A stretch of 64,000 bases of DNA from a virus, in IMG/VR virus record IMGVR_UViG_3300046535_000869, positions 1 to 64,000 of that record; one strand, written 5' to 3'. The notes under the pieces are model-generated. The model was not told the DNA's origin and ran no database searches. It saw only the letters and a list, made by a program, of their open reading frames with translations. The position numbers and the translations under genes are program-made. Shown one piece after another: positions 19,149 through 48,127 of the stretch (position 1 is the stretch's first letter; the number at the start of each line of letters is the position of its first letter).

Positions 19149-20353
19149 GCGATGGCGACCTCCGTTGGGACATCCAGGTGCAGCTCGTCGCCGCCCGTCT
19201 CCAGCGCCAGCTCAAACTTCTTCGCCACGTTCTCCCAGGTGAACTCCGGCCGGTGGACCCGGTCGTAGCCTGCCTGGCCGAGCGCGACCCGCGTCGCCTT
19301 ATCTCCGTAGAGCTTGTCCAGCGCCTGGAGCATCAGCTCCTTGTCCGCCAGCCCGCCGATGACGTTCACGTCGTTCACGGTCGCCGCCGTCGACGTGCAG
19401 GGAACCTTCAGCACCGCGTCGCCTGGCCACTCGCCGAGCGCCGCCCAGTCCGGCACGATCTGCGGAATGCCGCAGGCCATCGCCTCCATCGTCGGGAGGC
19501 CCCAACCCTCGCCCTGGGTCGTGGTCATCATCGCGTCGAAGCAGTTGTAGATGCCCGCCAGGTACTGCTCCGAGACGCCGACGCCGGGAACCATCTTTGA
19601 GCTGGTGATAATCAGCTTGTTCCCGATGCCGTAGTAGTCGCAGAGCTGACGCACGTCCCAGCCCTTGTCGCCGGTCGGAGCCAGGTGCAGGTAGAGGTAG
19701 GCGTTGTCGATGCGCCTGGTCTTCACCCACTCGGCGAAGTACGCGATGGTCAGGTCCAGCCGCTTCCGAGGCTGGTTCCGGTTGATGTTGCCGACGATAA
19801 ATAGGTCCTCGCCGAGCCGCTTCGTGATACCCATCCGCTCGCGGGTCGCCGCCCGGTCCATCGGGCGGTAGATGCTGGTGTCGACGCCGTGCGGGATGAT
19901 GGTCGCCTTCCCGGAGTAGCCGCCCTTGCGGGCCTCGTCCAGGCCGAACTGCGTGTAGAAGATCGCCAGGCTCAGCCCGTTCAGCTCTCGGCCCTGGCAG
20001 TTCTTCCCGTCAACCGGCATGTAGGCGACGACCGGGAGCGCCGACGCGAACCGCTGAACGTAGTGCTTGACGTTCCAAGGGTCGTTCATCACCACCAGGA
20101 GGTCCGGCCGGATCTCCTTCAGGAGCGCCGGAACGCGCTGGATGCCGAAGGCGTCTCCGCCTCCTGCCGCCGGGTAGACCGCGTACGGGTGTGGCCCCTT
20201 ACAGGTCGGCCCATGCGGGTCGCCGAAGTAGTTGATGCCCAGAACGCTCACGTCCGCGACCGCGCCGAGAGGCGTGCAGACGTTCCGCGTCACGCGCGCG
20301 AACCCGGTCTCGATGCAGGCGTCGCCGTTCCAGAGATACTTCCGCTTGCTCAC
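19145..20353 (-). CDS. GT4-family (GT-B) glycosyltransferase
   Basis: TGFARV, IPHGVD, NRNQPRKRLD, GEGWGLPTMEAMACG. Confidence 0.9.
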   Translation of the reverse strand: MSKRKYLWNGDACIETGFARVTRNVCTPLGAVADVSVLGINYFGDPHGPTCKGPHPYAVYPAAGGGDAFGIQRVPALLKEIRPDLLVVMNDPWNVKHYVQRFASALPVVAYMPVDGKNCQGRELNGLSLAIFYTQFGLDEARKGGYSGKATIIPHGVDTSIYRPMDRAATRERMGITKRLGEDLFIVGNINRNQPRKRLDLTIAYFAEWVKTRRIDNAYLYLHLAPTGDKGWDVRQLCDYYGIGNKLIITSSKMVPGVGVSEQYLAGIYNCFDAMMTTTQGEGWGLPTMEAMACGIPQIVPDWAALGEWPGDAVLKVPCTSTAATVNDVNVIGGLADKELMLQALDKLYGDKATRVALGQAGYDRVHRPEFTWENVAKKFELALETGGDELHLDVPTEVAIA

Positions 20354-21246
20354 CGGCAAACCTCCCAGAATCCGTCCGCGATATCCTTCCAATCGAACCG
20401 CCGCAGGACCGCCTTCCGCTCCGCCTCGGTCACGGCCCGCCGTGGCTTCCGCAGAATCTCCTCGACGGACTCACGAACCGCCGCCGGTTCGGCCTCCGTC
20501 ACGTACTCCGCGTGCTCGCCATACCAGCCCCGGTAGTGCGGCTGGTCGAACGTAATCGGCCGCGCCCCGCAGGCCAGGCCCTCCAGCATGGGCAGCTCGA
20601 ACCCCTCGCCGCGCCGGAGACCAGAGACGTAGGCGCTCTGCGAGTAGGCGTCGACCAGGGCCTTGTCCGAGATGCCGACCCGGCACTCGACGTGCTCGCC
20701 CAGCTTCAGGTCCGGCCCCAGGTGGAACATTTTGCCGCCGACGTTCTTGACCGCCTGCGCGCATTCGCCAACACATTCGCTCTCCGAGACGTAACCGGAG
20801 GTCGCCATCAGGAACCGGCCATCGAGACCAGGCGTCTGCTGGAAGACCGAGCCATCGACGCCCAGAGGCGCGTGGTAGAACCGGAACGGGAGGTCCTGCC
20901 CAGGAGCCAGGTAGCCGTCCTGCCGCGCGTAGGACTCCAGGTCGTAGTAGCTCCAGACCGCCCGCGCGCCCGACCAGAGAGGGACCCAGACGTTCGGGTC
21001 GGCCGTCTCCGTCGACCGGAGGCAGTACTGGAGGACGACGTACGGCTTGCCCTGCTCCTTGACCAGCTCCGGCAGGTCCGTCGTCGGGTGTAGGTTCCGC
21101 AGGCCGATGACATGGTGAACCACCACGTCCGCCGCCTGGATGGTCGAGACCAGCCGGACGTCCTTCGGCGCGTGCGCCGCCAGCGCCATCGTGATGCGCG
21201 TCATCGCCCGGCCGAGCGCCTGGTGAGGCCAGAGGTAGACGTTCAC
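20350..21246 (-). CDS. GT-B glycosyltransferase (paralog of 46585..47442)
   Basis: EGFELPMLEGLACGARPI (E-x7-E motif); GTG start overlap. Confidence 0.8.
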   Translation of the reverse strand: MNVYLWPHQALGRAMTRITMALAAHAPKDVRLVSTIQAADVVVHHVIGLRNLHPTTDLPELVKEQGKPYVVLQYCLRSTETADPNVWVPLWSGARAVWSYYDLESYARQDGYLAPGQDLPFRFYHAPLGVDGSVFQQTPGLDGRFLMATSGYVSESECVGECAQAVKNVGGKMFHLGPDLKLGEHVECRVGISDKALVDAYSQSAYVSGLRRGEGFELPMLEGLACGARPITFDQPHYRGWYGEHAEYVTEAEPAAVRESVEEILRKPRRAVTEAERKAVLRRFDWKDIADGFWEVCR

Positions 21247-22714: not shown

Positions 22715-23154
22715 GCCGCCGCCTTCTGCCGGTTCAGGACCGCGATGGCCTGGTCGACGTGCTCATCCTGGAGACCCTCCGCCCAGGTCGTTCTGACCAG
22801 GTGGTCGGAGACGTAGCCCATGTCGGCGTCGTCGTCCAGGACCACGTACCCGTCGACCGGCTCGGCCGTGTTGTTCAGCCAGTCGTAGATCTCGGTCCCG
22901 CGATCTTCGCCAGCCAGGTCCGCCGTCACGTCGATGACCTCCGCCAGCACGCCCGCCGAACCGAGTAGCCGGACGACGTCGCAGCTCGGCGACAGCCGCC
23001 AGGTCGACGTGACCACGATGACGGCCCCTGTCGCCTCCGTGATGACGTTCAGCCGCGCGATGGCGTCCAGGTCCAGCCAGCGCCGCCCGGCCCAGTCCGG
23101 CCAGCGCTCGAAGCCGTTGAGCACGCCGTCGAAGTCGAGGAAGACCACCTTCAC
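22711..23154 (-). CDS. HAD-superfamily hydrolase (HAD_SAK_2-like)
   Basis: FLDFDGVLN, IVVTSTWR, RGTEI, YVVLDDD. Confidence 0.85.
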   Translation of the reverse strand: MKVVFLDFDGVLNGFERWPDWAGRRWLDLDAIARLNVITEATGAVIVVTSTWRLSPSCDVVRLLGSAGVLAEVIDVTADLAGEDRGTEIYDWLNNTAEPVDGYVVLDDDADMGYVSDHLVRTTWAEGLQDEHVDQAIAVLNRQKAAA

Positions 23155-24278
23155 GCGCCGACTCCCGCGCGCGCCCGCGCGAACCGCTCCACCACGTCCG
23201 AACACTCCTCGTCCGAGATGGCCAGGTTCGGCCGGAGCCTGACCGTCCGATCTCCTGTCGGGAGCATGATGGTCGACTCCTCGTGCCACATGGCCAGGAC
23301 GAAGGCGTCCCGGACGACCTTGGACTCGAAGTCCATCGCCAGGAGGAGGCCGACGTTCCGCGCCCCGATGGCCGTCGCCAGCTCCTTGCCCTTACGCTTG
23401 ACGTTCGCCAGGATGTCGTACCGGTCGTACGCGCCGAGGATGGCCCGGCAGCGGATCATGTCCAGAAGGTCGCCGTCCCAGGTCGCCTCCAGGTGGTCCG
23501 GCGTCTCGAAGATGGCCCCGAACTTATCCGCGACCATCACGCCAGAGACCTGAGCCTTCTTCCCGAAGCAGACGATGTCCGGCGCGAAGCCGAGCTGCTC
23601 GAAGTACCACATGGTCCCGGTCCCGCCGAACCCGGTCTGAATCTCGTCGAATATCAGCGGAATCCCGGTCCGCGTGCAGAACCGCCGCGCGTCCGCCAGG
23701 AAGGCCCGGTCGACGACCCGGTCGCCAGCCGTGCATTGGATAGGCTCGATGATGACCGCCGCCAGGTCCATCGGCCAGTCGGCCGTCTGCCGCCCGCCTT
23801 GGCAGTAGAAGTCCGCCTGCGGGTAGTCCTTCGTCCGGCTCCAGGCAGGCCCGCCGGGAGCCGCCAGCATCCCAGCGACGCCGCTGATGCCGTGATAACT
23901 GTCGGCGAGTACGAGTATGCGCCGACGTTTAGTCGCCGCCTGCGCGACCTTGATGGCCGCGTCGACCGCGCTTGCCCCGGTCGTCGTGTAGTGGAAGAAC
24001 GTGAACGCCGACATGGCCGGGTGCAGCTCGAACGCCCGCGCGAAGCGTTCCGCCGAGTCCGTCGCCATCTCGCAGTTGGTAATCTTCACGCCCGCGTGAC
24101 GAAGGACCTCCGCGTGGAAGGTGTCGTTGTCGAAGGCCGGATGGTTGTAGCCCAGCGGGAGTGACGAGTACAGGCCGAACAGGTCCAGGACCTCCCGACC
24201 GGTATTCAGGTCGTAGAGGTAGGAACCGTGGCTCCGCGCCACGTCAATCTTGATGCCAAACTTGGAGGTCCTGTGCAT
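23151..24278 (-). CDS. Class III PLP aminotransferase (lysine epsilon-aminotransferase-like)
   Basis: LPLGYNHP, EPIQ, LIFDEIQTGFG, FGKKAQV. Confidence 0.9.
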   Translation of the reverse strand: MHRTSKFGIKIDVARSHGSYLYDLNTGREVLDLFGLYSSLPLGYNHPAFDNDTFHAEVLRHAGVKITNCEMATDSAERFARAFELHPAMSAFTFFHYTTTGASAVDAAIKVAQAATKRRRILVLADSYHGISGVAGMLAAPGGPAWSRTKDYPQADFYCQGGRQTADWPMDLAAVIIEPIQCTAGDRVVDRAFLADARRFCTRTGIPLIFDEIQTGFGGTGTMWYFEQLGFAPDIVCFGKKAQVSGVMVADKFGAIFETPDHLEATWDGDLLDMIRCRAILGAYDRYDILANVKRKGKELATAIGARNVGLLLAMDFESKVVRDAFVLAMWHEESTIMLPTGDRTVRLRPNLAISDEECSDVVERFARARAGVGA

Positions 24279-25877: not shown

Positions 25878-26557
25878 GCCGCCCTCCACTTCTGGAGCGC
25901 GACCCAGCCGCCGAACTGCGCGCGCGCCAGGGACTCGTCGTCGAACAGGAAGCCCGCCGCCTCAAGGGCCGAGACTGTCTTGGCACGGTCCTCGCCAGGC
26001 GGGACTTGATGGAATTCGATGAACAGGTGCGTCGCCGAGGCCAGCGCGCCAGGCATCCCGCGTACGGCCGCGTCCTCCGCGCCCTCGATGTCCATCTTGA
26101 TGACATCCGCCCGCCGACCAGACAGCGCCAGGATGGTGTCGAGGCTCTCGCACTCGACCAGGACAGCGTGACCCGCACTGCCGTGTACGGCCCCAGCGAT
26201 GGACATGGACAGCCCAGGCTCCGGTTTGATGAGCCGCATCAGCCCGTCACCAGCGCCGACCGCGACGCAATGCAGGTCGACCCGCTTGTCGTTGAGGTAC
26301 AGCTCGGCCAGCATGTCAGCCCGCTCCCGCTCCGCCTCGATGGCGACGACTACTAGGGTCGGCTTCCCGAACTTCAGCGCCAGGGCCGTGTAGAACCCGT
26401 ACTCCGCGCCCGCGTCAACCACCACGTCGGCCGACCGGACCGCGTCAACGAACGCCTGTGAGTAGGGTTCCCACCGAACGTTGGCCTGCTCCGTCCCGAC
26501 CATTAGGTCATGGCAGATGTCCAGGGTCGCCTTCTGGCCGTAGGTCTTCTCGGTCAC
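25874..26557 (-). CDS. FkbM-family methyltransferase
   Basis: VVDAGAEYGFY, SLD, VIKMDIEGAE, IEFH. Confidence 0.9.
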   Translation of the reverse strand: MTEKTYGQKATLDICHDLMVGTEQANVRWEPYSQAFVDAVRSADVVVDAGAEYGFYTALALKFGKPTLVVVAIEAERERADMLAELYLNDKRVDLHCVAVGAGDGLMRLIKPEPGLSMSIAGAVHGSAGHAVLVECESLDTILALSGRRADVIKMDIEGAEDAAVRGMPGALASATHLFIEFHQVPPGEDRAKTVSALEAAGFLFDDESLARAQFGGWVALQKWRAA

Positions 26558-27108
26558 TTGACCATCTCCGGCATGAAGGAACAGTAGAGCCAGTGGAACA
26601 TCATCATCGCCACGTCCTCGGCGACCGCGTTGCTGTCGGTCTCCAGGTCGATGGTGATGTCCGCCTTCTCCGAGACCGGCCCGCGCTTGCCGACAACCGC
26701 CGCGACGTGCATATTCAGGAACTTCGCGCGCGCGACCGCCTTGGTCAGGTTGGCTGACTTCCCGGACCCGCTGAAGACCACCAGGAGGTCGCCCGGCTCG
26801 CCGAGGGTGTCGAGCTGGGCCGCGAACATATTGTCCGCGCCGAAGTCGTTGACCGCTGAGGACAGCATGAACCCGCTGTTCAAGGAGACCGCCCGCATGC
26901 CAGCGCCAGCCTCGCGCAGCACGTTCAGCGACAGGCCGAGCGCCAGGTGGTCAGTGACCGTGCCGCCGCCGCCGTTGGCCGCTGTGTAGATGGTCCCGCC
27001 ATTGTCGTTGACCCGCTGCACCAGGAGCCGGAGCGCTTCGGCCCGCTCGAACGGGAGCTTCGCCGCCTTCTGGGCAACCGCGTCGACGTACGACCAGCAC
27101 GTCTTCAC
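26554..27108 (-). CDS. SIS-domain sugar-phosphate isomerase (GmhA-like)
   Basis: IYTAANGGG, VNDFG, GDLLVVFSGSGKSANL, AED. Confidence 0.85.
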   Translation of the reverse strand: MKTCWSYVDAVAQKAAKLPFERAEALRLLVQRVNDNGGTIYTAANGGGGTVTDHLALGLSLNVLREAGAGMRAVSLNSGFMLSSAVNDFGADNMFAAQLDTLGEPGDLLVVFSGSGKSANLTKAVARAKFLNMHVAAVVGKRGPVSEKADITIDLETDSNAVAEDVAMMMFHWLYCSFMPEMVK

Positions 27109-27662
27109 GGCTTCCTCCAGGCCCCGATGCCGCCCCAGTCGCCCCTGACGGTCCACTCCAGCTTCTCGCCAGCCAGGCCCGCCCAGTACGCCGGGACGCC
27201 GCCCTTCTCCCAGACCTCGAACGCGCTCGCCGCCGCGTTGATGTCGTGGAAGACGATCCAGCCGCCGGACCGTACCAGCTTCCCGTAGTCGTCCACGTCC
27301 GCCGTGACGCCGTCGAGGCTGTGGTCGCCGTCGATGAACAGCATGTCAACCGGGTCGCCATCGAGCTGCTCGACCACCTTGAGCCAGGTCGCCTTGTGAT
27401 GGCTGTCGCCGGAGATACAGATGACGCCGACCAGGGCCGCGTTCCGCTTGGCGGTCTGGGCCTGGTTCATCCCGGTCGTCGAGCCTTCGATCTTGTCGAC
27501 CGTCACGGTCTTCCCGGACGCGATATTCGACAGGAGCTGCGTGACGCCGCCAGGCCCGGTCCCAATCTCCAGGATGGTCTTCGGCTTGACCTCCTCGGCC
27601 AGCCAGCGCGAGAACGGCTGGATCTCGTCCGGCCATTGGAGCATCGGCAGGGTGACCTTCAT
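27105..27662 (-). CDS. Class I SAM methyltransferase (Methyltransf_24-like)
   Basis: ILEIGT, LFIDGDHS, GGWIVFHDI. Confidence 0.9.
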   Translation of the reverse strand: MKVTLPMLQWPDEIQPFSRWLAEEVKPKTILEIGTGPGGVTQLLSNIASGKTVTVDKIEGSTTGMNQAQTAKRNAALVGVICISGDSHHKATWLKVVEQLDGDPVDMLFIDGDHSLDGVTADVDDYGKLVRSGGWIVFHDINAAASAFEVWEKGGVPAYWAGLAGEKLEWTVRGDWGGIGAWRKP

Positions 27663-29049: not shown

Positions 29050-30270
29050 TTACTGCGCCCACTTCACGCCGGTCAGGTGCGCGATGGCCTCACGGTGCTG
29101 CGGAACCAGGTCGACCTCGTTGATCACGCGAAGCGCCGAGGCGTTCCGCTGATAAAGCGAGAAGACCGAGCCGTCCGACTGGACGATGGTTCCCTGGTCC
29201 GTCATGTCCACCTGAATCTGTGCGCCCTGGCCGAGCATCAGCTCGTCGCCGTCGTACAGGAAGATCAGGGACTCGTCCGCCCCGGTGCCGAGCGTGCTCG
29301 GAATCTGGGTTGACGAATCGAACGGGAAGCCCCACAGGGTTCCCTTGGACATCTCCGGTGCGAACACCTGGTTGCCGTTGCCGTCGCGCGCGGTGAACAG
29401 ATAGATCTTCGTGCGCGGTGACATCGCCCAGGCCCCGCCCGTCATCGGGACGTTGCCGTTCTCCATCGCGAGGAGCAGCCGACCCAGGTCGCCGGTCACT
29501 TCGGCCAGCTTCTGTGCGTCGGTCCCGGTGAAGGTCGTCGAGGCCAGGCGGTTCGCCGATGGCGTCCAGTACTGGAGGCCCTTCGGACGGTGCGCCGAAC
29601 CCGGCGACGTCAGGAACACGGAGTCCTCGCCGATGGCCAGCGCGCGCAGCGTGCTGTTGCGAACGATCTGCGCGACGCGCGGCCCGCCCCGACGGAGGAA
29701 CGTGTTGGAGAACGGCACGAGCGCCTTCTCCTGGTGCGCGCGCATGATGATCTGGTCGGTGCTGGGCTGAGAATCGCGAATCTCCTCAACCTCTCCGCCC
29801 CAGCTCACCGCCGCGTCAGCCGTGACGCGCGGCATGTCGACCTGTCCGGCCGAGATGTCGATGGTCGCCTTCACGCGCCGACGGACAACCGTCATGGGTG
29901 CGAGAAGGTCAATCACCTGTTGGCTCTGCTCCGGCGCGAAGAACACGCCGCCAGCGTCCGCGACGCCCGACTCCAGGGCCTTCGTCACGAAGTCCTTCTG
30001 GTTGTCGGGAATCATCGACCCGGCCTTCTTCACGTTGTCGATGGCGATGTCCTTGCTGCCCTTCGCGCCCTGGAGCGCGATGGCGATGTAGCCGAGCATC
30101 AGCCCGCGCTGTTCGGCTTCGTAGGCGCGGTCGACTTCGTTCCCGGCGAGCTGTGCGGCCTTCTCGGACACGCCCAGGTCCGCCCGGCGCTCGTGCATCG
30201 TCTTGAGCGCTTCGGCGACGACCTCGCCTGCGGTGTTGCGTACGAGATCTGTCAATTCCTTCGTGTTCAT
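29050..30270 (-). CDS. Major capsid protein (HK97 fold)
   Basis: AGGVFFAPE...WAMSPRT...ARDGNG...TLWGFP; follows the prohead protease. Confidence 0.93.
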   Translation of the reverse strand: MNTKELTDLVRNTAGEVVAEALKTMHERRADLGVSEKAAQLAGNEVDRAYEAEQRGLMLGYIAIALQGAKGSKDIAIDNVKKAGSMIPDNQKDFVTKALESGVADAGGVFFAPEQSQQVIDLLAPMTVVRRRVKATIDISAGQVDMPRVTADAAVSWGGEVEEIRDSQPSTDQIIMRAHQEKALVPFSNTFLRRGGPRVAQIVRNSTLRALAIGEDSVFLTSPGSAHRPKGLQYWTPSANRLASTTFTGTDAQKLAEVTGDLGRLLLAMENGNVPMTGGAWAMSPRTKIYLFTARDGNGNQVFAPEMSKGTLWGFPFDSSTQIPSTLGTGADESLIFLYDGDELMLGQGAQIQVDMTDQGTIVQSDGSVFSLYQRNASALRVINEVDLVPQHREAIAHLTGVKWAQ

Positions 30271-30400: not shown

Positions 30401-33400
30401 CTAGTCGACTCGTCCGGTGACGAGCATGAGCTGTTCGCTGATCGCCGCCTTCAGCGCCGACCGAATCAGGTCGGGCGAGATGGCTAGATCAATGTCCTTC
30501 TCTTCGTCGAGCACTAGAACCTGCTCGTTGTCGTCCAGCGCGCGCCCCATCGTGATGGGTAGCGGGTCGGCCGGGCCGTCCGTGGCTGGCGGAATCACTT
30601 CCGCTGGCGCTTCGGTTGCGGTTTGTAGTGTCGCCAGCACTTCGTCGAGGAGCGCCGTCGCATTGCGAATGCGCTGCTCGTTGGCAGACGACAAGACCCG
30701 GCCAGCCTTCAGCACTTGGACCGCCTCGTCCAGGTCGGCGAGCGCGACCGAAATGGCCGCTTTCGTCTCCGTGGTCGCCCGACGGTCGCCAGCGCAGAGT
30801 GACAACGTCCGGTGCTTCAACATCAGCGAAGCCTCGGTATGAGATTTGCCTTGCGGTCCGAACCGCTTGGAGACCCAGCTCGCCGCGCGATAGCGGGAAC
30901 CGGTCGCCTGGACCGACGTGATGAGGTCCCGCTGGTCGGCCAGCTTCGTCAGGGCCGCGTCGAGCGCCGCCGTCAGCGCCAGGCCGTCCTGCTCCTGGAT
31001 GATGCTCGCGAAGCGGCACAGCTCCCGGACATGCGCGCCGGAGTAGCCAGCCGTGGCGTCGACCGCCTTGATGGTGTCGACCGCGTCGAGGCCCGGTAGC
31101 CAGCGCGCCAGCATCTGCTTGCGTGCGACGTCATCCGGGAGGTCGAACTTCAGGACATCGTGGAACCGGCCCGGCCGGTCAATCAGCGCCTTCGGGAGCA
31201 GCTCCGGGTAGTTCGTGGTCAGGATGGTGACGACGCCCTTGGTCTGGCGAATGCCGTCCATCTCGGACTTGAGCATGTCGACCGTGTAGCCATCCAGCCA
31301 GTTGTCCACGTCCTCGACGAAGATGATGCTTGGAGCCAGCTCCCGCGCCATCTCGAAGGCGTGTACCATCCCGCCGAACGCGCCCATCCGGGCGAAGTCC
31401 CTGGCCGCGACCCAGATGAACGTCGACTTGGAGTTGTTCAGGAGCAGCCGACCGGTCAGGGTCTTCCCGGTTCCGGGAGGCCCGACCACCATTAGCCCGC
31501 GATTGTCGAAGTCCGCGCCCTTCTCTTCGATGAGCGTCGCGACACGCTTGATGGCCTTGGCGTTCTCCGGCGCGAGGAAGACCTCGTCGAAGCCCTCCGA
31601 GCCGCGCTCCAGGAACTCGCCAGAGATGTTGAACGCCTCGCCCTTGAGGTACTTGAGGCCAGCCGCGCGCTCCTGTACGTCCGAAACGAACCGTTCCATC
31701 GCGCCCTTCTTGTCGCGCTCGATGTAGGTCGTCACGTCCAGGCCGTACCAGGCAGGCGTCACGCGGAGGCACATCTTGATGCCGTGGAACTCCTCGTGCT
31801 CCCAGGTCAGGAAGCGCATCCCGTCGACCAGGAAGTCCTGCTCGATCTTGGAGTTGAGGCGAATCATCTCCCACGTCGGCGGAACTTCCTTGCCGTCCCA
31901 GTCGGTGTTGCGAATGTCCTCGACGTCGCAATCGACGAGCTGCTCGTCCAGCGACTTCAGGAAGCTGCCCATGCGGGCCGAGGCAACCTGGAAGCGGGAC
32001 TCGCTCAGAGCCTTCACGTCGCAGTCGATGAACCGCGCCGCCAGGGCCTGCTCGATGTCGCCCGCCGGAATCTGCTCGCGGGTCACGTCGAACGCTTTAC
32101 TCAGGCTCTTGTTCCAGCGGACCGGGTCCACGTCCTCGACACGCGCGAAGACCTTGGCTACCCGATCTTCGGCAGACTCTATTGAGGCTGCGCCAGGACC
32201 GGCGTTGATGGCGTCGGAGTCGTCCAGGATGCTCTGCGCGCTGGACGCGATGACCGCGACCTGCTCGGCGATGGTCTGGCAGACGCTCAGGACGCCGTTC
32301 ATCACGCGGTTCTCGTTGGCTTCCTCGGCGTCCTCGGCCGGGTTCGGCGTCGGCTCAACCTGCTCGACCGCCAGGAGGCCAGCGACATCAGACGCCGCCT
32401 GCTCCAGCACGTCCGAGGCGTCGCTGAGCATGGAGGCCATCGTCTGGAAGGCCGCGCGCTCCTCGGCGTCGTCGGCGTCGTCCGGGACCGGCGTCGGCCC
32501 GACCGGCGACATTGGCACGACACCAGCCGCCGCGCTGACGTCCAGCGGGCTGTCCTTGGCCTCGACGACGACCGGCTCGATGACCGGCTCGGCAGACGCC
32601 TCGATGGCGATGGGCTGGCCGTCCAGGAGGATCTGCTCGTCCAGCTCGTCCGTCACGCGCGCGTGAGTTTCCGGGAGCGCCTCGGCCGTTGCCTTGGCCT
32701 CCGGGATTGTTTCACGTGGAACACTGGTCTTGGCGACCTTCAGCTCGGACAGGACCGAGAAGACCTTCCGGCCGGTCGGGTCCGCCTGCGCGCGAAGGGT
32801 CTCGACCTGCTTCCGGGTCAGAATCGACTCGCCGCGCTTCATCAGGTCCAGGGTCTTCTCGGCCCAGGCTTTCAATGGCGCGACGTCGATGCCCTTGGAC
32901 CGGGCGATGACCAGCGCCTCTGGATGGGCTGGAACCGGGCAGATCGAATGTTCGAGCAGGCCCTGCTTCAGGAAGTTGACGCCCGTCTCGGACATCTCCC
33001 ACTCGGTCGGGAGGAACCCGACGGAGCAGGCGTTCAGGAAGCCGCCCTGGATCATGCGGTACACGGTGTCCGCGAACGGGTACACATCCGGCCCGATGAA
33101 CTGGTCGGTCGCCCGGAGCATGGAGCCGTCGTTGATCGTCTCCAGCGCGCGGCCGACTGGCAGCGCGCCGTGGTCGTGCGCCCAGAGGACGACCGGGTTG
33201 GTCTTGTAGTCCTTGAGGTCCCAGCCCTTCACGGCCAGGCTGTCGCCCTCCCGGTCCAGGTTGGCGTTCGACAGGACGAACGGAATCGTCCGGCTCTCCG
33301 GGTCCGCCTTCATGGCCGACAGGTCGACCAGGCCAGACTTGAAGACCACGTACGGTGCGAGGTCGTCGCCCGATGCGCCCTTCTTGACCAGGGCCTTCCA

Positions 33401-33430
33401 GTCAGCAGCCGTGATGAGCGTGCGGTCCAT
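30401..33430 (-). CDS. HK97-type prohead protease fused to an AAA+ ATPase and scaffold-like tail
   Basis: DREGD, NPVVLWAHDH, ACSVGF, LLEHSICPVPAHPEA; GPPGTGKT, IIFVEDVD, TTNYPE, DRPGRF; C-terminal KAGRVLSSANE. Confidence 0.9.
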   Translation of the reverse strand: MDRTLITAADWKALVKKGASGDDLAPYVVFKSGLVDLSAMKADPESRTIPFVLSNANLDREGDSLAVKGWDLKDYKTNPVVLWAHDHGALPVGRALETINDGSMLRATDQFIGPDVYPFADTVYRMIQGGFLNACSVGFLPTEWEMSETGVNFLKQGLLEHSICPVPAHPEALVIARSKGIDVAPLKAWAEKTLDLMKRGESILTRKQVETLRAQADPTGRKVFSVLSELKVAKTSVPRETIPEAKATAEALPETHARVTDELDEQILLDGQPIAIEASAEPVIEPVVVEAKDSPLDVSAAAGVVPMSPVGPTPVPDDADDAEERAAFQTMASMLSDASDVLEQAASDVAGLLAVEQVEPTPNPAEDAEEANENRVMNGVLSVCQTIAEQVAVIASSAQSILDDSDAINAGPGAASIESAEDRVAKVFARVEDVDPVRWNKSLSKAFDVTREQIPAGDIEQALAARFIDCDVKALSESRFQVASARMGSFLKSLDEQLVDCDVEDIRNTDWDGKEVPPTWEMIRLNSKIEQDFLVDGMRFLTWEHEEFHGIKMCLRVTPAWYGLDVTTYIERDKKGAMERFVSDVQERAAGLKYLKGEAFNISGEFLERGSEGFDEVFLAPENAKAIKRVATLIEEKGADFDNRGLMVVGPPGTGKTLTGRLLLNNSKSTFIWVAARDFARMGAFGGMVHAFEMARELAPSIIFVEDVDNWLDGYTVDMLKSEMDGIRQTKGVVTILTTNYPELLPKALIDRPGRFHDVLKFDLPDDVARKQMLARWLPGLDAVDTIKAVDATAGYSGAHVRELCRFASIIQEQDGLALTAALDAALTKLADQRDLITSVQATGSRYRAASWVSKRFGPQGKSHTEASLMLKHRTLSLCAGDRRATTETKAAISVALADLDEAVQVLKAGRVLSSANEQRIRNATALLDEVLATLQTATEAPAEVIPPATDGPADPLPITMGRALDDNEQVLVLDEEKDIDLAISPDLIRSALKAAISEQLMLVTGRVD

Positions 33431-33496
33431 ATTTGGCAGATGCTCCTGGGTGTCCAGACGGAGACACGTTGAGTCTGCCAAGAGTTTTACGGACGC

Positions 33497-33586: not shown

Positions 33587-33697
33587 TTAGCGGTCGGCTT
33601 CCAGGCTGGCCTCGTCCAGGGAGTCGGTGGTCAGGACGACCTCGAACTTGTGACCGGCCCGCTTCCAGGCGGTCGAGTTACTGGTTGCTGTCGCCAC
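33587..33697 (-). CDS. Possible 36-aa peptide
   Basis: GTG-start ORF overlapping the upstream gene end; no motif. Confidence 0.3.
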   Translation of the reverse strand: MATATSNSTAWKRAGHKFEVVLTTDSLDEASLEADR

Positions 33698-33821
33698 GCT
33701 TCAGTAGTTCCGGGCAATCCTTGATCGTGTGTAGCTCTGACCCGCAGTAGGAGCACCGCCGGACGCGTCGCCCCTGTTTCCGCTCGATTGACTCCCAGTC
33801 AGCCTTCGTGGTCTCAGCCAT
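33678..33821 (-). CDS. 47-aa CCHC zinc-knuckle protein
   Basis: GGAGG RBS; CSYCGSELHTIKDC = C-x2-C-x4-H-x4-C; absent from the ORF track. Confidence 0.7.
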   Translation of the reverse strand: MAETTKADWESIERKQGRRVRRCSYCGSELHTIKDCPELLKRGDSNQ

Positions 33822-35766: not shown

Positions 35767-38700
35767 TTAGTCCAGGAGGGACAGGTCGCCGCCCGCCAGG
35801 AGGATCTTGTCCTCCAGCTCCCGCCGCTGCCGGTGAACCAGGAGGATGTCCAGCGTCCTGGCCCGGCCCGCCGCCAGGGAGCCGCCCTTCCCGACCGAGG
35901 CCCAGCTTCGCGACGCCTTCGCCTGCCCGCCCGCGACGATGCCGCCTTTCGTGGTCACGCTGGCGAACGCGCGCGCGCTGACCGCCTTCCCGGTGCTGGT
36001 CGCCCCGCCGCGCCCGATGATCGCGAAGGACCAGGACATCGACGTCGGAGCCGACCCAGCCGAGACGCCGCCGCCCGATCCGACGTAGCCGTAGGTTACC
36101 GGCTTGGGCTTCGGCGGGATGGCAAGGTTGCCGCCTTCCCACTCGACGAACGCGCCGCCGATCCAGCGCCCGCGCTCCGGCATGAGCGCGCCGCCGTCGG
36201 TCAGGACGCCCGCTGTCAGGACTTTGGGCTTGCGCCGCGCGTGCCGCCCGAAGGTCGGGTAGCCGTTCCCGGACCCGTACGCGCCGCCGGTCCCGACGTA
36301 GTCGAACTCCACCGAGGATGACGGGCTGGCGCTGACGGAGGACGACGGAGAGACCGAGGCCGACGGCGAGCGCGACGCCGAGGGGCTGACAGACGGCGAG
36401 GCCGAGGCGCTCGGCGACCTGGAAGCGCTGGGCGAGACCGATGGACTCTGTGAGGCGCTGGGCGACCGGGACGGCGACGCCGACGCGCTGGCGCTACTCG
36501 ACGGGCTGACCGACGGACTGACCGAGGCGGACGGCGACTTCGACGCGGACGGGCTGACCGAGGGACTGGCGCTCGCCGACGGCGACGTGCTGGCCGAGGG
36601 GCTAACGCTGGGACTCGCGCTCGCGGACGGTGACCGGGAGGCGCTCGGCGAGACTGACGGACTCTGGCTGGCCGAGGGAGAGACCGACGCCGAAGGACTG
36701 ACAGACGCGCTCGCGCTCGCGGACGGCGAGACGCTGGCCGACGGCGACACGGACGGCGACTGGCTCGCGGACGGCGATGTGCTCGCCGAGGGAGAGACGC
36801 TCGGACTGGCGCTGGCGCTCGGCGACCTGGAGGCGGACGGGCTGACGCTAGGCGACGCCGACGCCGACGGTGAAATGCTCGGTGAGCCAGCCGACGGCGA
36901 CAGGGAACTCGACGGCGACAGGGAGCTGCTCGGAGAGACCGAGGCCGAAGCACTCGATGACGGGCTGACGCTGGCCGACGGAGAGACGGAGGCTGACGGG
37001 CTGACCGACGGCGATTGGCTCGCGGACGGACTGACCGACGGCGACTGCGAGGCTGAGGGGCTGACCGACGCGCTGGGCGAGACAGAGGCCGACGGCGACA
37101 CGGACGCGCTCGGCGAGACGCTGGCGCTGGGCGAGACGCTGGCTGACGGCGAGACCGAGGGACTGGCCGATGCGGACGGCGAGACCGAGGGACTCTCAGA
37201 CGCCGACGGGCTGACACTGGCGCTCGGACTGACCGAGGCCGATGGACTCACGGAAGCCGACGCGCTCGCGCTGGGACTGACACTCGCAGACGGCGAGATG
37301 CTCGGCGACTGGCTGGCCGACGGGCTAACCGAGGCCGATGGAGAGACGCTTGGCGACTCTGACGCGGACGGAGAAACCGAAGCACTCGGCGAGACCGAGG
37401 GGCTGGCGCTCGCGCTCGGACTGACCGACGCAGACGGCGACACGCTCGGCGACGCCGATGCGGACGGCGACACGGAGGCCGACGGGCTGACACTCGCCGA
37501 CGGACTGATGCTGGGCGACGCGCTCGCACTCGGCGACACGCTGGCCGATGGCGAGACCGACGGTGATTGCGAGGCGCTCGGTGAGACGCTGGCCGAAGGA
37601 CTGACCGACGCGCTCGGACTGACCGACGGAGACGCCGAGGCGCTGGGCGAGACGCTCGCGCTGGGGCTGACCGATGGACTCTGCGATGCGCTCGGCGAAA
37701 CCGACGCCGACGGAGAGACAGACGCAGAAGGCGAGACACTCGCGCTGGCCGAGGCCGACGGCGAGACGCTCGCGCTCGGCGAGACCGACGGCGACTGTGA
37801 CGCCGACGGGCTAACGCTCGCCGAAGGACTGACGCTCGGACTCTGACTGGCCGAGGGTGAGACGCTCGCGCTGGGCGACACGCTCGCGCTCGGACTGACC
37901 GACGGACTCGCTGACGCGCTCGGACTGACGCTCGGCGATTGTGAAGCAGACGGAGAGACCGACGCCGAGGGGCTAATGCTGGCGCTCGGCGAAATCGACG
38001 GAGACTGACTCGCGCTCGGCGAGACGCTTGGACTCTGCGATGCTGACGGGCTAACCGATGCGCTTGGCGAGACGCTCGCTGATGGCGAGACCGATGGCGA
38101 CGCCGACGCCGACGGCGAGACAGACGCGCTGGGGCTAACACTGGGTGACTGTGACGCGGACGGCGAGACGCTCGCGCTCGGAGACTTCGAGGCGCTGGGC
38201 GACACGCTCGGCGATTGCGAGGCAGACGGAGAGACCGACGGCGACTGACTCGCCGAGGGACTAACCGACGCCGACGGCGACACAGAAGCAGACGGACTGA
38301 CCGACGCCGACGGCGAGACCGACGGACTCGATGAGGCTGACGGGCTAACGCTCGGCGACTGCGAGGCTGAGGGGCTGACCGACGCGCTGGGCGAGACGCT
38401 GGCGCTGGGGCTGACAGACGGCGACGCCGACGCCGAGGGACTGACGCTCGCCGACGGCGAGATGCTGGGCGACTGTGAGGCCGATGGCGACACGCTGGCG
38501 GACGGCGACTTCGACGCCGACGGCGAGACAGACGGACTCTGTGACGCTGATGGACTAACGCTGGCCGACGGGCTGACGCTCGGCGACTGACTCGCGCTGG
38601 GGCTGACACTCGCGCTGGGCGACACGCTCGGAGAGGCCGACGCCGACGGCGAGACCGACGCAGACGGGCTAACCGATGGAGAGGCGCTCGCGCTTGGCGA

Positions 38701-39996
38701 GACGCTCGCCGACGGACTGATGCTCGGAGAAGCGCTGGCGCTTGGCGACTTCGACGCTGAAGGCGAGACCGACGGCGACGCGCTCGCTGAGGGAGAGACC
38801 GACGCGGACGGGCTGACAGAGGCACTCGCTGACGCCGACGGAGAGACGCTCGGCGACTCGGCCTTGTTGAACGCCGTGACCTCGGTCGTGTTCAGGATCG
38901 CGACAGCCGCCTGCACGTCCACCGTCTCGATGGCGTGGCTGAGCGACGCCGACGGACTCACGCTCGCCGACGGTGACTTCGAGGCGCTCGGACTGACGCT
39001 CGCGCTGGGCGACTTCGACGGCGACGATGACGCCGACGGCGAGACGCTTGGACTCTGCGAGGCGGACGGTGAGACGGACGCGCTCGGCGAAACGCTGGCG
39101 CTTGGAGACTTCGAGGCCGACGGGCTGACGCTCGCACTCGGAGAGACACTCGGACTTTGTGAGGCCGATGGGCTGACAGATGGCGACTGGCTGGCGCTGG
39201 GGCTGACCGACGCGCTTGGACTGACGCTCGCCGAAGGGCTGACCGACGCTGAAGGCGAGACCGACGCCGACGGCGATAGCGACGATGACCCGGTACTGCT
39301 CTCGACCAGCGCGACGAAGATGTGGTTCGAGTCGCCAGTGATCGCCGTGACCGACGGGTTGCTCGTTTCCCCGGTCGACGTGTTGATCCTGAACTCCGAC
39401 CAGCAGCTCACCGCGTTCGCGTTGTTCCTCGACCGCGTCGTCGCGCCAGTCGTGAAGTTGGTCGAGACCGTCAGCGCGGTGCCGCTGCCGTTGGCTTCCT
39501 TGCCCAGCGCCGAGAAGTACAGGCGTGAGAGACTCGCCAAGCTGCTGAAGGCCGTCGAGCCGAAGCCCGCGTTCGCCGCGATGTTGTTGAACTGACTGGT
39601 CGCGCCATGCACCAGCGAGCTGCCCGCCGCGACCGTGAACTTCCAGCCGACCATGACCTTGTCGGAGCTGGACGGAGCAACCGTCGCCGTGAAGACCGTG
39701 CCGATGGCGTTCGTGCCAGACGAGACGAACCGCCAGAGCGACGTGCAGACGCCGTCCGAGGCCGCGCCGGTCGGGCTGTAGGTGTACTCCTCCAGCTTCG
39801 TCCATGTCCCGGTGCCGCCAGTGATGGACGTGTGGTCGTTCGTCGTGCCGGTCGTGGTCGAGTTGTTGTCGGTGGTGATGACGACGAGCGCGATGTCGCC
39901 TGACGCCGACAGGGCGTTCGTCGTCGTGGTCAGCGTGATCGCCGTCGCGCCGCTGACGCCGTTGACGCCGAGTGTGCCGACGGAGGTGATCGCCAT
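35767..39996 (-). CDS. Mucin/SRRP-like Ser-Pro repeat protein (putative glycosylated virion fibre)
   Basis: 1409 aa: ~230-aa beta-rich N-domain, ~1000 aa SPSAS(V/Q/A/K/R)/SPSV repeats, Gly-rich C-domain; no signal peptide. Confidence 0.85.
36311..39290 (-). repeat. Coding tandem repeat ([10 protein letters not shown] units)
   Basis: 12/18/30-nt periodicity with heavy synonymous variation. Confidence 0.95.
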
Positions 39997-39999
39997 CGG

Positions 40000-41787
40000 C
40001 TAGAACTGCTTGATGGCGATGCCTGACGGGAAGTCGACCTCAACGTCCGCGCCGGTCGTGACCAGCGTGAACGGGAAGAACGCGACCGGGACCGACTGCG
40101 TGTCGTCAGCGCTCACGTCCCGGTAGAGCACCATGCCGCCCAGCGTCTGCGCCGTCGTGACCGCCGGGAAGACCGGCGACGTGGCCGACAGCGTCGCGAG
40201 ATCGTTCGTGTCGTCCTCCGCGACGGAACGCCCGGCCATCGTCTGCCGCGTCACGCCTGCCGCCTCCTTGCTCGTCACGTCGCCCGCGCTGCCGTCGTCG
40301 AGCGTCTGAAGATCCGGGTCGAAGACGTACGTCGACAGGACCAGCGTCATCTTGAGTGTCGACGTGTCGAGGTCGAGCGTGCCGATGAGTAGCTCCTTCT
40401 TCGCCCGGTTGTAGAGGTACTGCGCGCTCGCGCCTGCCGGTTGGATCGGCCCAATCCATGCGTAGTTCGTGGCCGCGCCAAGCGTCGGCGGATTTGCCGC
40501 GCCCTTGAGGAGCGTGTTCGTCGGCGTGTAGTCTCCTGTCTCTCCAGTCGCACTCACGTACTGCGGGTCAACGGCGAGATCGTGTGCTCCGGCGCTGATC
40601 GCGCTATATCCGCCAGCCGTGTTGTTGTAGACGTTGTTGAAGTCCATCAAGTGTCCGCCATAGCGGTCATTCGTCGCTGTCGTTCCACCTGAAAGCAGGA
40701 GTCCGTACCCACCATTGTTCGTCAAATTGTTGTTGTTGACGATTGTTCCAGCAGCGGTTTGGACAGACAAAGCTGTATCAGCACAACTGTCGATGACGTT
40801 CCCTGTGATTATCGAGTTAAGCGCAATATCAGAACCTGACCCGGAGTGATCGTGGATAGCTGGCGAGGCTGCGCGACAACGGGTGATGACGTTACTGATG
40901 AACGCGCACCCTTTTGATGTGTCAAAGACAGGCCCACGATAGTTGTCGATGATGTTGCCGACTAACCGAGTAAAATAGAGACCTCCATACAGCGCGTAGT
41001 AGGTTCCGGCTGAAGTGCTTCCAGAATTACGGATGATGTTGTCTGTGAAGGAGACGATTCCAGCTACAAACGTCCCATCGAACCCGTTCTGGTCATAGAT
41101 GCAGCTATCAACGGAAGCGCCGCCGTTCCCTTGGATGAAGCCGTTGTCGGTAAGAAAATTCGTCCCGGTCGGGACCATCTTGAGTTCGCGGAAGATCCAG
41201 CCATTGGCCTGATAGAACATCAACCCATTACAGGTCAGGTAAGGACGCCCGTTGTAGCCGAGTACGGTAATCGGTGCCTCTAATGTTGACCCCAGTAGTT
41301 GGTTGTACCCCGTCTGTGCGACATCAGGCGTACTACCGAGGGCAGGATCGGTACTGCCTCCTGCCGCTCGGACGTTGACGATGTTACCAGCGATGAGAGG
41401 AGAGGCGAGCAGGGGAGCCGTGATCGTTCCGCCGATGGACACATTTCTGAAGTCGGCCCACGCGCCGCCGATGCGCGCCGACTGGCCGGTTCCGGTCCCG
41501 GTGTTTCGGTCGACGCCGATGGTGTTCGTGTTCGTGCGGCTGGTGATGACGTAGTAGCCGTCGCCAGCGATCCGAATCACGTTCCCGATCATCTGCGACG
41601 TGAAGCCGCCAGTGACGGACGTGACCGCGCCGGTCCCGACCGTGACGACGTCCGTCAGGCTGAGTTGTGGACTCGCCTGATCGGAGTAGTTCGTCCCGGC
41701 CCCGCTGATCGTGGAGTCGAAGCCTCCACCGTTCAGCTCGTCACCGTCGACGCGAATCCACCACTGTTGTGAGGCGAGGATCGACAT
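40000..41787 (-). CDS. Beta-helix-containing structural protein
   Basis: PbH1-like Asn-rich repeats (ITGNVID, IVNNNNLTNNGGYG, DFNNVYNN, VDPQY); C-terminal phage structural domain (LYNRAKKELL...LKMTLV). Confidence 0.7.
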   Translation of the reverse strand: MSILASQQWWIRVDGDELNGGGFDSTISGAGTNYSDQASPQLSLTDVVTVGTGAVTSVTGGFTSQMIGNVIRIAGDGYYVITSRTNTNTIGVDRNTGTGTGQSARIGGAWADFRNVSIGGTITAPLLASPLIAGNIVNVRAAGGSTDPALGSTPDVAQTGYNQLLGSTLEAPITVLGYNGRPYLTCNGLMFYQANGWIFRELKMVPTGTNFLTDNGFIQGNGGASVDSCIYDQNGFDGTFVAGIVSFTDNIIRNSGSTSAGTYYALYGGLYFTRLVGNIIDNYRGPVFDTSKGCAFISNVITRCRAASPAIHDHSGSGSDIALNSIITGNVIDSCADTALSVQTAAGTIVNNNNLTNNGGYGLLLSGGTTATNDRYGGHLMDFNNVYNNTAGGYSAISAGAHDLAVDPQYVSATGETGDYTPTNTLLKGAANPPTLGAATNYAWIGPIQPAGASAQYLYNRAKKELLIGTLDLDTSTLKMTLVLSTYVFDPDLQTLDDGSAGDVTSKEAAGVTRQTMAGRSVAEDDTNDLATLSATSPVFPAVTTAQTLGGMVLYRDVSADDTQSVPVAFFPFTLVTTGADVEVDFPSGIAIKQF

Positions 41788-41796
41788 GCCCTTCCC

Positions 41797-43902
41797 TTAC
41801 TGCTTGACGAACGCCTGACAGTTGACGCCGGTCGTGTCTGGGCAGAGTCGGAACAGGTTCTGCGGAACGCCGTCAATCGCCTCCTGCTGAAACAGGCCCG
41901 GCAGCGTCGTGAAGGTGATGACCGGCGGAGGCGGAGGCGGAGGCGCGGTCCCGCCGTTCAGTGGAGACGTCCCGGTCCCATCCCAGAGCACGTCATCGTA
42001 GAGCTTCATCACGAACCGGCGAGGATGCGACCCGTACGGCAGAAACGTCACGCGAGCGAAAGCGGTGTTCGGAGGGAGCGTGATGGTCGGCGTCTCGACG
42101 TAGATATCGAAGAACACGCCGACGGCCCCTTGGACGATAGAATCGGAGACGAGATAGTCGCTATTCGGCACGCCCCAGAGCGCCGTCGTGCAGCCGGACA
42201 GGTACGCGCCTGTGATCTTAATCGGATGCACGTAGCCAGTCGTGATGTCGACACAGCGGCTTCCGTAGTACCGGTCGATGTAGCCCAGCGGCGCGCCATT
42301 ACCGAGGCTGCTCTGCTGGATCACTACAGGGTTACGGAACCAGCCTTCGTTGACGTCTTCCGCCTGACGTGCGCCGATGCCGATGAAGTCGTTGATGCTC
42401 CGCACGTTGTCGAGGACCGGGAGGTGGGCCTCGTCGAAGAAGCGGCCCGGATCTTCAATGCCCCACGTCTCGAAGCCGACGAATCCGTTGCCGACGCTGA
42501 GCGCATGGTCGACCAGTATCGGCGGGTTGTTGTTGGTGTAGGGAGGCGCGAACAGCACGTCCGGCATCGCCCCAGCGACCGACGGATACAGCCCGGACTT
42601 TCCATGAAAGCCGAACAGGTTCCAGCCGACCGTGTTGTTCCAGCATTCGTTCCCGTCGAAGGTGTTCTGGATGCCGTGAAACCAGCCGCACGCGCCCTCG
42701 ACGCCGGGTTTATTGTTCAGGAAGTTGACGCCCGCCTGAATCTCCGACACGTCGGAGAAGTTCGTGAGGTTGGCGAAGCCGATGTTTCTCAGGAAGCTGT
42801 TCCTGACTTCGTAGCCGTCCTCTGTGATGAAGCCCGCGCCTTGGAAGCCGGTCGCGATGTTCTCGACGACGAGCGTGTCCGAGGTGCCGTGCGTGACGTG
42901 GCCCCACTTCCCGCGCCCCTGCCCGATGAGGACCATGTCGACCGTCCGACGCTCGACCGCGCAGCCACCGCCGTGAACATGGTGCGCGTGAAAGGCGTAC
43001 TTCCCGATCTGGTTCGTCCCGATGTGCGATTGGTCCGCCGATGTCGAGTTGAGGTCGTCGACCGTTGTTCGACCGAGGCCGACGAGCGCGCCGCCTTGGA
43101 TGTCCCAGCAGGCCGTATCGCCGATATTGGCGACGTGACCGGCGGTCCCGTTCGCGTTCTCTGACCGGATGACGACGTTGCGCGTGACGTTGAGGATCTT
43201 CGGCCGGATGGCGAGCCGCCCATCGTGCGCGAAGACCGCCGCGTGCGCGAACGACAAACCGCGCGACAGGCCGATGCTCGTCCCGTTGACCGACGTGATG
43301 AACGTGGCAGGCTCGACGATGGGCGAGTCCGGGAAGACCGCCGGGTTCGTGCTGAGCAGCTTGACCTCGTCGCCGACGCGCCATCCGCTCGGCACGCCGC
43401 AGAGGGTGATGAACGAGCTGCCGGGCTGCGCGTCGAAGCACAAGTCCGCGCCCGGCGTCCGGTACGGTTCGTTGATCTTGATGGTGCCGAAGCTGGCGAT
43501 GCCGTTGCCCCACTGGAACGGATCTTGCCCAAGGTCAATCGGCACGTTGCGAATCTGGAGGTCGACGCGCACGCCAGCCGGAATCGGGTCGGCTGGTGTG
43601 CCGAGGTCGAGCGTCCCGCCCGGCAGGATGAGCAGCGTCGTGACCTTCGCTGAGGTATTCGCCGACCGGCTGACCTTCAGCGTCCCGCCGACCTCGATGT
43701 AGTCGAAGACACTGCCGTCCGGGAGCGTGACCGTCTGTCCGGCCGCGACGATGAGCTGCGCCGGGAGGTCGGTGCGCCGCTTGACGAACTCCGACGCGCC
43801 GATGGTGACGCGGTCCGGCTGGACTGTCGCCATGATCATCTGGGCTGAGGCCGTCGAGGCGATGAACAGCGACGCAAGCAGGAAGCGGAATGTCTTACGC
43901 AT
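41797..43902 (-). CDS. Signal-peptide-bearing G8-domain/beta-helix protein (TMEM2/CEMIP/fibrocystin-like architecture)
   Basis: MRKTFRFLLASLFIASTASA; GGTLDLGTPADPI, GWRVGDEV, NVTRNVVIRS, GKYAFHAH, HGTS, FITEDGYE. Confidence 0.8.
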   Translation of the reverse strand: MRKTFRFLLASLFIASTASAQMIMATVQPDRVTIGASEFVKRRTDLPAQLIVAAGQTVTLPDGSVFDYIEVGGTLKVSRSANTSAKVTTLLILPGGTLDLGTPADPIPAGVRVDLQIRNVPIDLGQDPFQWGNGIASFGTIKINEPYRTPGADLCFDAQPGSSFITLCGVPSGWRVGDEVKLLSTNPAVFPDSPIVEPATFITSVNGTSIGLSRGLSFAHAAVFAHDGRLAIRPKILNVTRNVVIRSENANGTAGHVANIGDTACWDIQGGALVGLGRTTVDDLNSTSADQSHIGTNQIGKYAFHAHHVHGGGCAVERRTVDMVLIGQGRGKWGHVTHGTSDTLVVENIATGFQGAGFITEDGYEVRNSFLRNIGFANLTNFSDVSEIQAGVNFLNNKPGVEGACGWFHGIQNTFDGNECWNNTVGWNLFGFHGKSGLYPSVAGAMPDVLFAPPYTNNNPPILVDHALSVGNGFVGFETWGIEDPGRFFDEAHLPVLDNVRSINDFIGIGARQAEDVNEGWFRNPVVIQQSSLGNGAPLGYIDRYYGSRCVDITTGYVHPIKITGAYLSGCTTALWGVPNSDYLVSDSIVQGAVGVFFDIYVETPTITLPPNTAFARVTFLPYGSHPRRFVMKLYDDVLWDGTGTSPLNGGTAPPPPPPPVITFTTLPGLFQQEAIDGVPQNLFRLCPDTTGVNCQAFVKQ

Positions 43903-48017: not shown

Positions 48018-48127
48018 CGCGGCCCTCGGTAGACGACAAGGAGCAGGATGGCCGTCGTGACCGCCACGGCAATCGCGCCAGCCGCCAGCACGTACTTGAG
48101 GACGACCAGCCCTGTTGCCAGCGTCAC
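48014..48127 (-). CDS. 37-aa single-TM membrane peptide
   Basis: GTGA/ATGA coupling on both sides; MTLATGLVVLKYVLAAGAIAVAVTTAILLLVVYRGPR. Confidence 0.6.
   Translation of the reverse strand: MTLATGLVVLKYVLAAGAIAVAVTTAILLLVVYRGPR

Follow-up and report, generated by a model that had tools for sequence, protein, structure and literature searches.

Head assembly and proteolytic head maturation in the tailed phages studied so far are treated as ATP-independent, with ATP being spent only through the terminase or through host GroEL. The S78 head-maturation proteases typified by HK97 gp4 are ordinarily proteins of ~200-270 residues that likewise act without ATP. Among the AAA ATPases, YjoB of Bacillus subtilis and mitochondrial Bcs1 are the two studied members of one branch, and both work within a chamber on proteins that are folded or nearly native, and do not thread them (PMC9565160, PMC7824862). 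BCS1 orthologues are also present in jumbo phages, where they have been proposed to handle folded head proteins (Iyer et al. 2021, PMC7824862); that paper is silent on any fusion to a prohead protease, and the term “prohead protease” occurs in it 0 times. Here we describe such a fusion, encoded in a 64,000-nucleotide stretch of viral DNA (hereafter the window) that forms the first 64 kb of the 102,082-bp IMG/VR virus record IMGVR_UViG_3300046535_000869, which is from an uncultured soil phage and is rated complete by CheckV. The fusion gene (30401-33430, minus strand) encodes a 1009-residue protein in which a protease domain, a linker, an N-domain, an AAA module and a tail follow one another. 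We tentatively read this protein, at slightly less than an even chance, as an ATP-driven chambered chaperone or remodeller that is delivered into the procapsid together with the protease.

The open reading frame (ORF) runs without an internal stop to the stop codon at 30401-30403. The ATG at 33430 is its likely start, with an AGGAG ribosome-binding site, read directly from the sequence, on the same strand at 33443-33447, 12 nt upstream; a longer form starting from the TTG at 33481 is possible but less likely. A first-pass annotation had described one ORF with an HK97-type protease, an acidic linker, a globular domain, an AAA+ module and a tail, and all of these motifs were found as placed; it had also considered that a sequencing error might have joined two genes. 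Such a joining, by sequencing or by assembly, is practically inconceivable. A 26-kb Logan contig from a rhizosphere run, which may be the source sample, covers the ORF without differences or gaps, and three further rhizosphere or soil runs yielded short contigs that cover part of the ORF in close relatives and carry substitutions only, with no indels in any of the four runs. Moreover, the identical 1009-residue protein is recorded from two sources, JGI and Logan, the homologue P0006 aligns over 100% of length at 43% identity, and this domain order recurs in 194 of the 243 family proteins, which come from many samples.

An AlphaFold2 model of the protein was built on 94 homologues, and the features described below all lie on the minus strand. 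The model is confident for the protease domain at residues 1-170, followed by an acidic disordered stretch over residues ~216-318. This stretch includes an acidic, proline-rich linker (residues 233-318; 32477-32734) with a predicted local distance difference test (pLDDT) score below 50, and the linkers are not alignable across the family. Two long scaffold-like helices come next (residues 319-408; 32207-32476), spanning residues 320-353 and 366-408 with a pLDDT of ~80. The family-specific N-domain (residues 438-612; 31595-32119; pLDDT 92) adopts a very confident α/β fold at residues ~450-610 that packs ahead of the AAA module, and throughout the family it stands immediately N-terminal to that module. 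The classical AAA module with its lid occupies residues 620-845 (30896-31573; pLDDT ~97). Beyond it, the model has lower-confidence helices, a further acidic disordered stretch and a terminal helix at residues 986-1005.

The AAA module matches Pfam AAA (PF00004) at residues 647-763 with an E value of 3e-19, and its motifs are all kept. Walker A (GPPGTGKT) lies at residues 650-657 (31460-31483), and Walker B (IIFVEDVD, with FVEDVD at residues 704-709) at residues 702-709 (31304-31327), where ED replaces the usual DE. Sensor 1 (TTN, residues 738-740) and the second region of homology (SRH; DRPGRFHD, with DRPGRF at residues 751-756 and the arginines R752 and R755) together span 31157-31219, and GYSGAH (residues 795-800) and EMDG are also present. 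Across 120 aligned sequences, Walker A, E706-D707, N740, R752 and R755 show little or no variation; the E706-D707 pair is found in 120 of 120, and all 233 family members scored for Walker B have ED there. The mean pairwise identity across the family is 65% for the AAA core, 45% for the lid, 43% for the N-domain, which also has invariant residues, and 39% for the protease domain, whereas the adjoining capsid proteins are only ~20% identical. Judged from these sequences, strong purifying selection clearly acts on the ATPase, which is predicted to be catalytically intact, since all of the motifs are kept. As a separate observation, an intein splits Walker A in the metagenomic homologue P0080, entering after GPPG with CLHG and ending in FHHN before TGKT.

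By sequence, the best matches in the PDB are NSF, AFG2, p97 and Cdc48, with E values of 1e-30 to 2e-32, and FtsH and Yme1 match more weakly. The first-pass annotation had placed the ATPase in the FtsH/CDC48/proteasome clade. Its membership of the classical clade stands, given the PF00004 match, EMDG, the two SRH arginines and the matches to Cdc48, AFG2, NSF and FtsH; the module is nevertheless not FtsH-like or proteasome-like in particular, but belongs to the Bcs1/YjoB type. The swap of DE to ED is an exceptional trait common to B. subtilis YjoB and mitochondrial Bcs1, and YjoB is an active ATPase whose mutants E280Q and D281N are without ATPase activity (PMC9565160). Structural similarity search with Foldseek returned YjoB first (E value 4e-18) and then eight Bcs1 entries, over 390-450 aligned columns. 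VIA-align likewise ranked YjoB first, with a Z score of 21.8 and a root-mean-square deviation (RMSD) of 8.8 Å over 350 residues (model residues 429-832), compared to a Z score of 18.4 and an RMSD of 9.4 Å over 337 residues for Bcs1. Only the YjoB and Bcs1 alignments extend across N-domain and AAA module alike; the remaining AAA proteins align through the ATPase alone, with Z scores of ~19 over ~235 residues. In addition, the top cluster in the ESM Atlas is named “ATPase YjoB family”, which we take as a lead only. Overall, the Bcs1/YjoB assignment is well supported for the ATPase and for the domain layout, and kinship of the N-domain itself is a tentative suggestion, because the RMSD is ~9 Å and the N-domain alone is not distinctive.

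The structural and motif kinship with Bcs1, together with the published proposal for jumbo-phage BCS1 (Iyer et al., PMC7824862), suggests one way in which the fusion could act: a Bcs1-like ring might import folded proteins into the prohead or export them from it. We consider this very unlikely for the present protein. It has no Bcs1-like transmembrane anchor at its N-terminus, which is formed by the soluble protease domain, and in the model only the disordered linker and the two helices precede the N-domain. Moreover, the tail would place the protein inside the shell, the portal channel is far narrower than the Bcs1 chamber, and no candidate cargo genes were identified. YjoB and Bcs1 handle folded proteins and do not thread them, which makes the earlier term “unfoldase” less apt.

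Residues 1-185 (32876-33430; pLDDT ~85-97) form an HK97-type S78 prohead protease domain by both Pfam and PHROG. Pfam Peptidase_S78 (PF04586) matches residues 79-180 with 25.0 bits against a cut-off of 21, the PHROG head maturation protease family phrog_80 matches with an E value of 3.9e-17, and the head-maturation-protease families together extend over residues 41-218. H85 (in WAHD) and S136 (in CSVGF), which we take to be the catalytic His/Ser pair of the S78 family, are retained by 90% or more of the 94 aligned homologues. The 102-kb genome was found to contain no further S78 protease, N-domain or AAA locus of this kind. Since the genome is without a second S78 protease, the fusion is assigned as the maturation protease of this phage, and the gene is predicted to encode its only head-maturation protease, of the HK97 gp4 type.

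The C-terminal residues 905-1009 (30404-30718) constitute a tail of the prohead-protease type, in which a GRVLSSAN helix (nt 30680-30703) is followed by a disordered acidic segment, a terminal amphipathic helix and a conserved end, ...TGRVD. The motif KAGRVLSSANE lies at residues 908-918, and the stretch KAGRVLSSANEQRIRNA...VLATL at residues 908-958 aligns with gp5 of the Mycobacterium phage Phrann, an ordinary capsid maturation protease of 268 residues, at 39% identity over 51 residues (E value 3e-6). In Phrann gp5, KAGRVLSAKNESELRDA...VLATL comes directly after the protease domain, and the first-pass annotation had thus rightly named the end of the fusion protein a prohead-protease tail. As an observation on the same region, the extreme C-terminus of P0002 and of most protease-first homologues reads (R/T)GR(V/I/L)D-COOH, even in those without the GRVLSxxN motif; this conserved end may be a docking tip. 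Across the genome GRVLSxxN is present as a single copy and was found on no other protein, where it would be a sign of further capsid-targeted cargo.

A degenerate first copy of the tail motif (KRGESILTRKQVETLRAQ...) follows the protease domain at residues 195-232 (32735-32848), aligning to the tail region of Phrann gp5, with the decayed copy itself covering residues 203-232; two relatives carry two strict GRVLSxxN copies. The strict motif GRxLSxxN is present in 87 of the 193 protease-first members, 68 of which have a terminal ...GR(V/I/L) among their final nine residues. Parts of the tail are also found on some stand-alone ATPases: P0114 contains GRVLSxxN and ends in ARGRVD, P0139 contains GRVLSxxN, and P0174 has the end ARGRIS. 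The ATPase had earlier been thought to be inserted into a protease-scaffold gene. It does lie between the protease domain and the tail, but the degenerate first copy, the doubled copies and the stand-alone N-domain-AAA-tail proteins suggest, as the simplest history, that two genes became fused, one for a protease with its tail and the other for an ATPase with its tail.

The encapsidation signal of HK97 gp4 was reportedly mapped to the gp4 C-terminus by Duda and colleagues. HK97 virus-like particles also encapsidate GFP when it is fused to a gp4 protease segment (PMC11626933). By analogy with HK97, we infer that the tail of the fusion protein would target it to the procapsid.

Among 5.8 billion proteins searched, full-length relatives number at least 179. 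When 1.84 billion cluster representatives were searched with a profile of the N-domain alone, it matched 306 clusters, 222 of them at an E value of 1e-30 or below, and then none, by which the N-domain appears to be specific to this family. Three-domain hidden Markov models sort the 243 family proteins into 194 with the order protease-N-domain-AAA, 26 with N-domain-AAA-protease, 19 with N-domain-AAA only and four fragments. The habitats of the sequence matches are rhizosphere and soil metagenomes. When a contig scan was judged with the family alignment, six of 62 loci were true relatives, the others showing the generic GPPGTGKT pattern. A degenerate DNA pattern for DRPGRFHD retrieved two real members among at least 120 loci, namely L178 and L132, the latter a 3.4-kb contig of a metagenome-assembled genome of Candidatus Cloacimonadota. 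Among the INPHARED phage genomes, we found separate protease or AAA-core matches only, with no N-domain and no fusion, and searches of the full-text literature yielded no published description of a protease-AAA fusion. BCS1-like phage ATPases and the idea of their part in head assembly are already in print, and the fusion to a prohead protease appears to be new. The first-pass annotation had reckoned with an architecture both common and already characterised; it is indeed common in metagenomes, but it is not characterised.

The N-domain-AAA pair is joined to head genes in more than one manner. Pfam searches of four AAA-first proteins matched AAA, S78 and Phage_capsid in this order in P0031 and P0066, which therefore appear to carry ATPase, protease and capsid protein on one chain; P0076 matched AAA and S78, and P0065 matched AAA and Phage_capsid. 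Read from sequence, these single-chain forms would give one ATPase per capsid subunit. In locus L007, a separate ATPase gene overlaps the start of a 603-aa gene, the N-terminus of which resembles the protease part of the single-chain forms. Among the loci with readable neighbours, the portal gene directly precedes the fusion gene in L004, L006, L008 and L009, the preceding gene being a portal-MuF fusion in L004 and L008, and the capsid gene directly follows it in L004, L005 and L009. At the expected place of the capsid gene in L008 (L008:13267-14826), we observed two HNH homing-endonuclease genes directly downstream of the protease-AAA gene.

Protease and AAA module on one chain recall the ATP-dependent proteases Lon and FtsH, in which the two activities are also covalently linked, and the 26 N-domain-AAA-protease forms even share the order of AAA module and then protease. 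The AAA ring might accordingly unfold the scaffold or delta domains, and finally itself, and feed the tethered S78 domain, thereby emptying the capsid interior. A conserved G683-x-F685-G-G loop at the position of pore loop 1 agrees with this possibility, which would also account for the clearance from the shell of a folded ATPase carried by every subunit. We still regard it as rather improbable. Neither YjoB nor Bcs1, the nearest relatives that have been characterised, is an unfoldase of the threading kind, and in alignment to Cdc48 and NSF the region of pore loop 1 is shorter by 2-3 residues and that of pore loop 2 by ~10. The protease is N-terminal in the window and in 194 of the 243 family proteins, compared to 26 AAA-first forms, so that the order of Lon and FtsH is reversed in the main form; there it is separated from the N-domain by ~250 mostly disordered residues, a long and flexible linker, instead of being stacked on the ring. 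The protease fold differs as well, being S78 and not S16 or M41. S78 proteases are, to our knowledge, not known to form chambered rings.

Dedicated or recruited chaperones have precedents in phage head assembly, as in T4 gp31 and in the requirement of HK97 gp5 for host GroEL. We propose that, in the chambered chaperone or remodeller favoured here, the tail would carry the whole chain into the assembling procapsid and under the capsid protein, by analogy with the HK97 gp4 segment. The N-domain-AAA parts could then form six- or seven-membered chambered rings, as in YjoB and Bcs1, and these rings would spend ATP to hold, release or pull folded domains of head proteins, the most likely substrate being the capsid protein or its delta (scaffolding) domain. 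Such an activity might aid the assembly of capsomers or of the shell, or else clear the interior ahead of DNA packaging, after which the attached protease would cut the linkers and remove the machinery. A somewhat lower probability, still not far below even, goes to the fuller proposition that a chambered ring sits in the procapsid core, brought there by the protease tail or made as a pro-domain at the N-terminus of each capsid subunit, and acts as a self-destroying chaperone or extractor, adding an ATP-dependent step besides packaging. We know of no studied phage with an ATP-using step inside the young capsid.

Several points weigh against a chaperone of this kind. Procapsid entry and ring formation, like the substrate and what becomes of the ATPase once the head has matured, are predictions from sequence and model. 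The N-domain by itself matches Bcs1 and YjoB with Z scores of just 5.5 and 4.9, tied with many unrelated α/β domains; its other matches, START/Bet v1-like, KA1 and BamC-like folds with Z scores up to 7.2, are equally non-distinctive, and Pfam BCS1_N was unmatched at E values up to 0.1. The large two-domain RMSD implies that the relative orientation of the domains either differs or is poorly predicted. The contrast between an N-domain at 43% and capsid proteins at ~20% identity is easier to reconcile with a conserved ring interface or with a substrate other than the capsid protein. Finally, protease-capsid relatives of 50-58% identity have neither N-domain nor AAA module in loci of up to 20 kb, indicating that these capsids can assemble without the ATPase. 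On the strength of these loci, the ATPase is an accessory module that is gained or lost, and not a core part of the head machinery. Such a distribution also fits a dedicated chaperone, and the module may be regarded as an optional add-on to HK97-like head modules, comparable in this respect to T4 gp31.

The same accessory, sporadic occurrence, with close relatives lacking the ATPase, is expected of a packaged effector. The protease and tail would then serve as a vehicle, and the cleaved N-domain-AAA part would stay in the head, be ejected with the DNA and remodel a conserved host protein, such as a defence or envelope factor. Attachment to capsid-interior proteins in several different ways is often seen for packaged effectors, and an N-domain and AAA core far better conserved than the capsid proteins would fit a target outside the capsid. 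In addition, the protease segment is able to load passengers in HK97 (PMC11626933). On the other hand, the single-chain forms would bring an ATPase of ~50 kDa with each capsid subunit, and hundreds of them would hardly fit into a DNA-filled head; the chain has no effector-like extra domain, and retention in the virion lacks support. We hold an effector to be unlikely. Because the single-chain forms put an ATPase on every capsid subunit, we prefer a role in assembly, as a chambered chaperone or remodeller, over a retained cargo.

Either way, an intact ring ATPase wired to the maturation protease or to the capsid protein in hundreds of lineages would mean an unrecognised energy-requiring step of head assembly, or else a new mode of loading enzymes into virions. 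The poorly understood Bcs1/YjoB branch would gain a third setting that is experimentally tractable, as procapsids can be assembled in Escherichia coli from two or three genes. Moreover, the tail and ATPase modules may serve to load proteins into HK97-type nanoparticles.

The large genes of the window all lie on the minus strand. In the order of that strand, the large terminase (58753-59967) is followed by a portal-MuF fusion (49770-52166; Pfam Phage_portal at residues 100-375 and Phage_Mu_F at residues 566-689), an accessory island that separates the portal from the fusion gene, several small genes, the fusion gene and the gene of the HK97-fold major capsid protein (29050-30270), which begins 130 nt downstream of the fusion gene. 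The capsid protein has 406 residues; its Pfam capsid domain starts from residue 107, leaving the N-terminal ~106 residues as a delta-like region. Sugar-modification genes, a head-tail adaptor, a tape measure of 1526 residues and distal tail genes come after the capsid gene. Approximately 250 nt upstream of the fusion gene, a 47-aa ORF (33678-33821, minus strand) carries a zinc-knuckle motif of the form CX2CX4HX4C (CSYCGSELHTIKDC).

The island between portal and protease harbors GT2 glycosyltransferases (44608-46017, 47442-48017 and 48124-49341), β-helix proteins (40000-41787 and 41797-43929) and a serine-rich ORF of 1409 residues (35767-39996, minus strand). The latter consists of globular ends and ~1000 residues of hexapeptide repeats of the (SPSASV) type, with 38% Ser, 15% Ala and 13% Pro and a local GC content of 72%, and is a candidate for a heavily O-glycosylated, mucin-like virion fibre. 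A second sugar-modification cluster, located between the capsid gene and the head-tail adaptor, comprises a glycosyltransferase, an aminotransferase, a SIS-domain protein and a methyltransferase (19145-20392, 23151-24278, 26554-27156 and 27105-27662, minus strand).

Compared with the described systems, the fusion protein resembles the S78 proteases of the HK97 gp4 type in its N-terminal protease domain with His and Ser, in its position upstream of an HK97-fold capsid gene and in its KAGRVLSxxNE tail, but it differs from them by ~670 additional residues between protease domain and tail. The nearest annotated S78 examples are Phrann gp5 and the proteases of Bacillus phage Flasso and Komagataeibacter phage phiKM1. 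With the chambered hexameric AAA chaperone YjoB of B. subtilis (PDB 7W42), it shares the layout of N-domain and AAA module, the ED Walker B and the absence of a membrane anchor. The two are only 16-18% identical, however, and share no recognisable sequence relationship in their N-domains. In Bacilli, YjoB is found free in the cytoplasm and has KatA and GapB as its substrates, whereas in the phage the corresponding module is attached to both a protease and a capsid tail. Mitochondrial Bcs1 (PDB 6UKS, 6SH3 and 9GSN), the heptameric Rieske translocase, also has the ED Walker B and a pair of N-domain and AAA module that can be aligned, but the phage chain is without a transmembrane helix, as judged by the model and not by a transmembrane predictor, and without a match to Pfam BCS1_N. 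The protease-capsid fusions of HK97-like phages, of the PHROG 617 and PHROG 10 type, correspond to the C-terminal two-thirds of the single-chain relatives. Unlike in these fusions, the capsid protein in the window is encoded by a separate gene, and the ATPase is the novelty.

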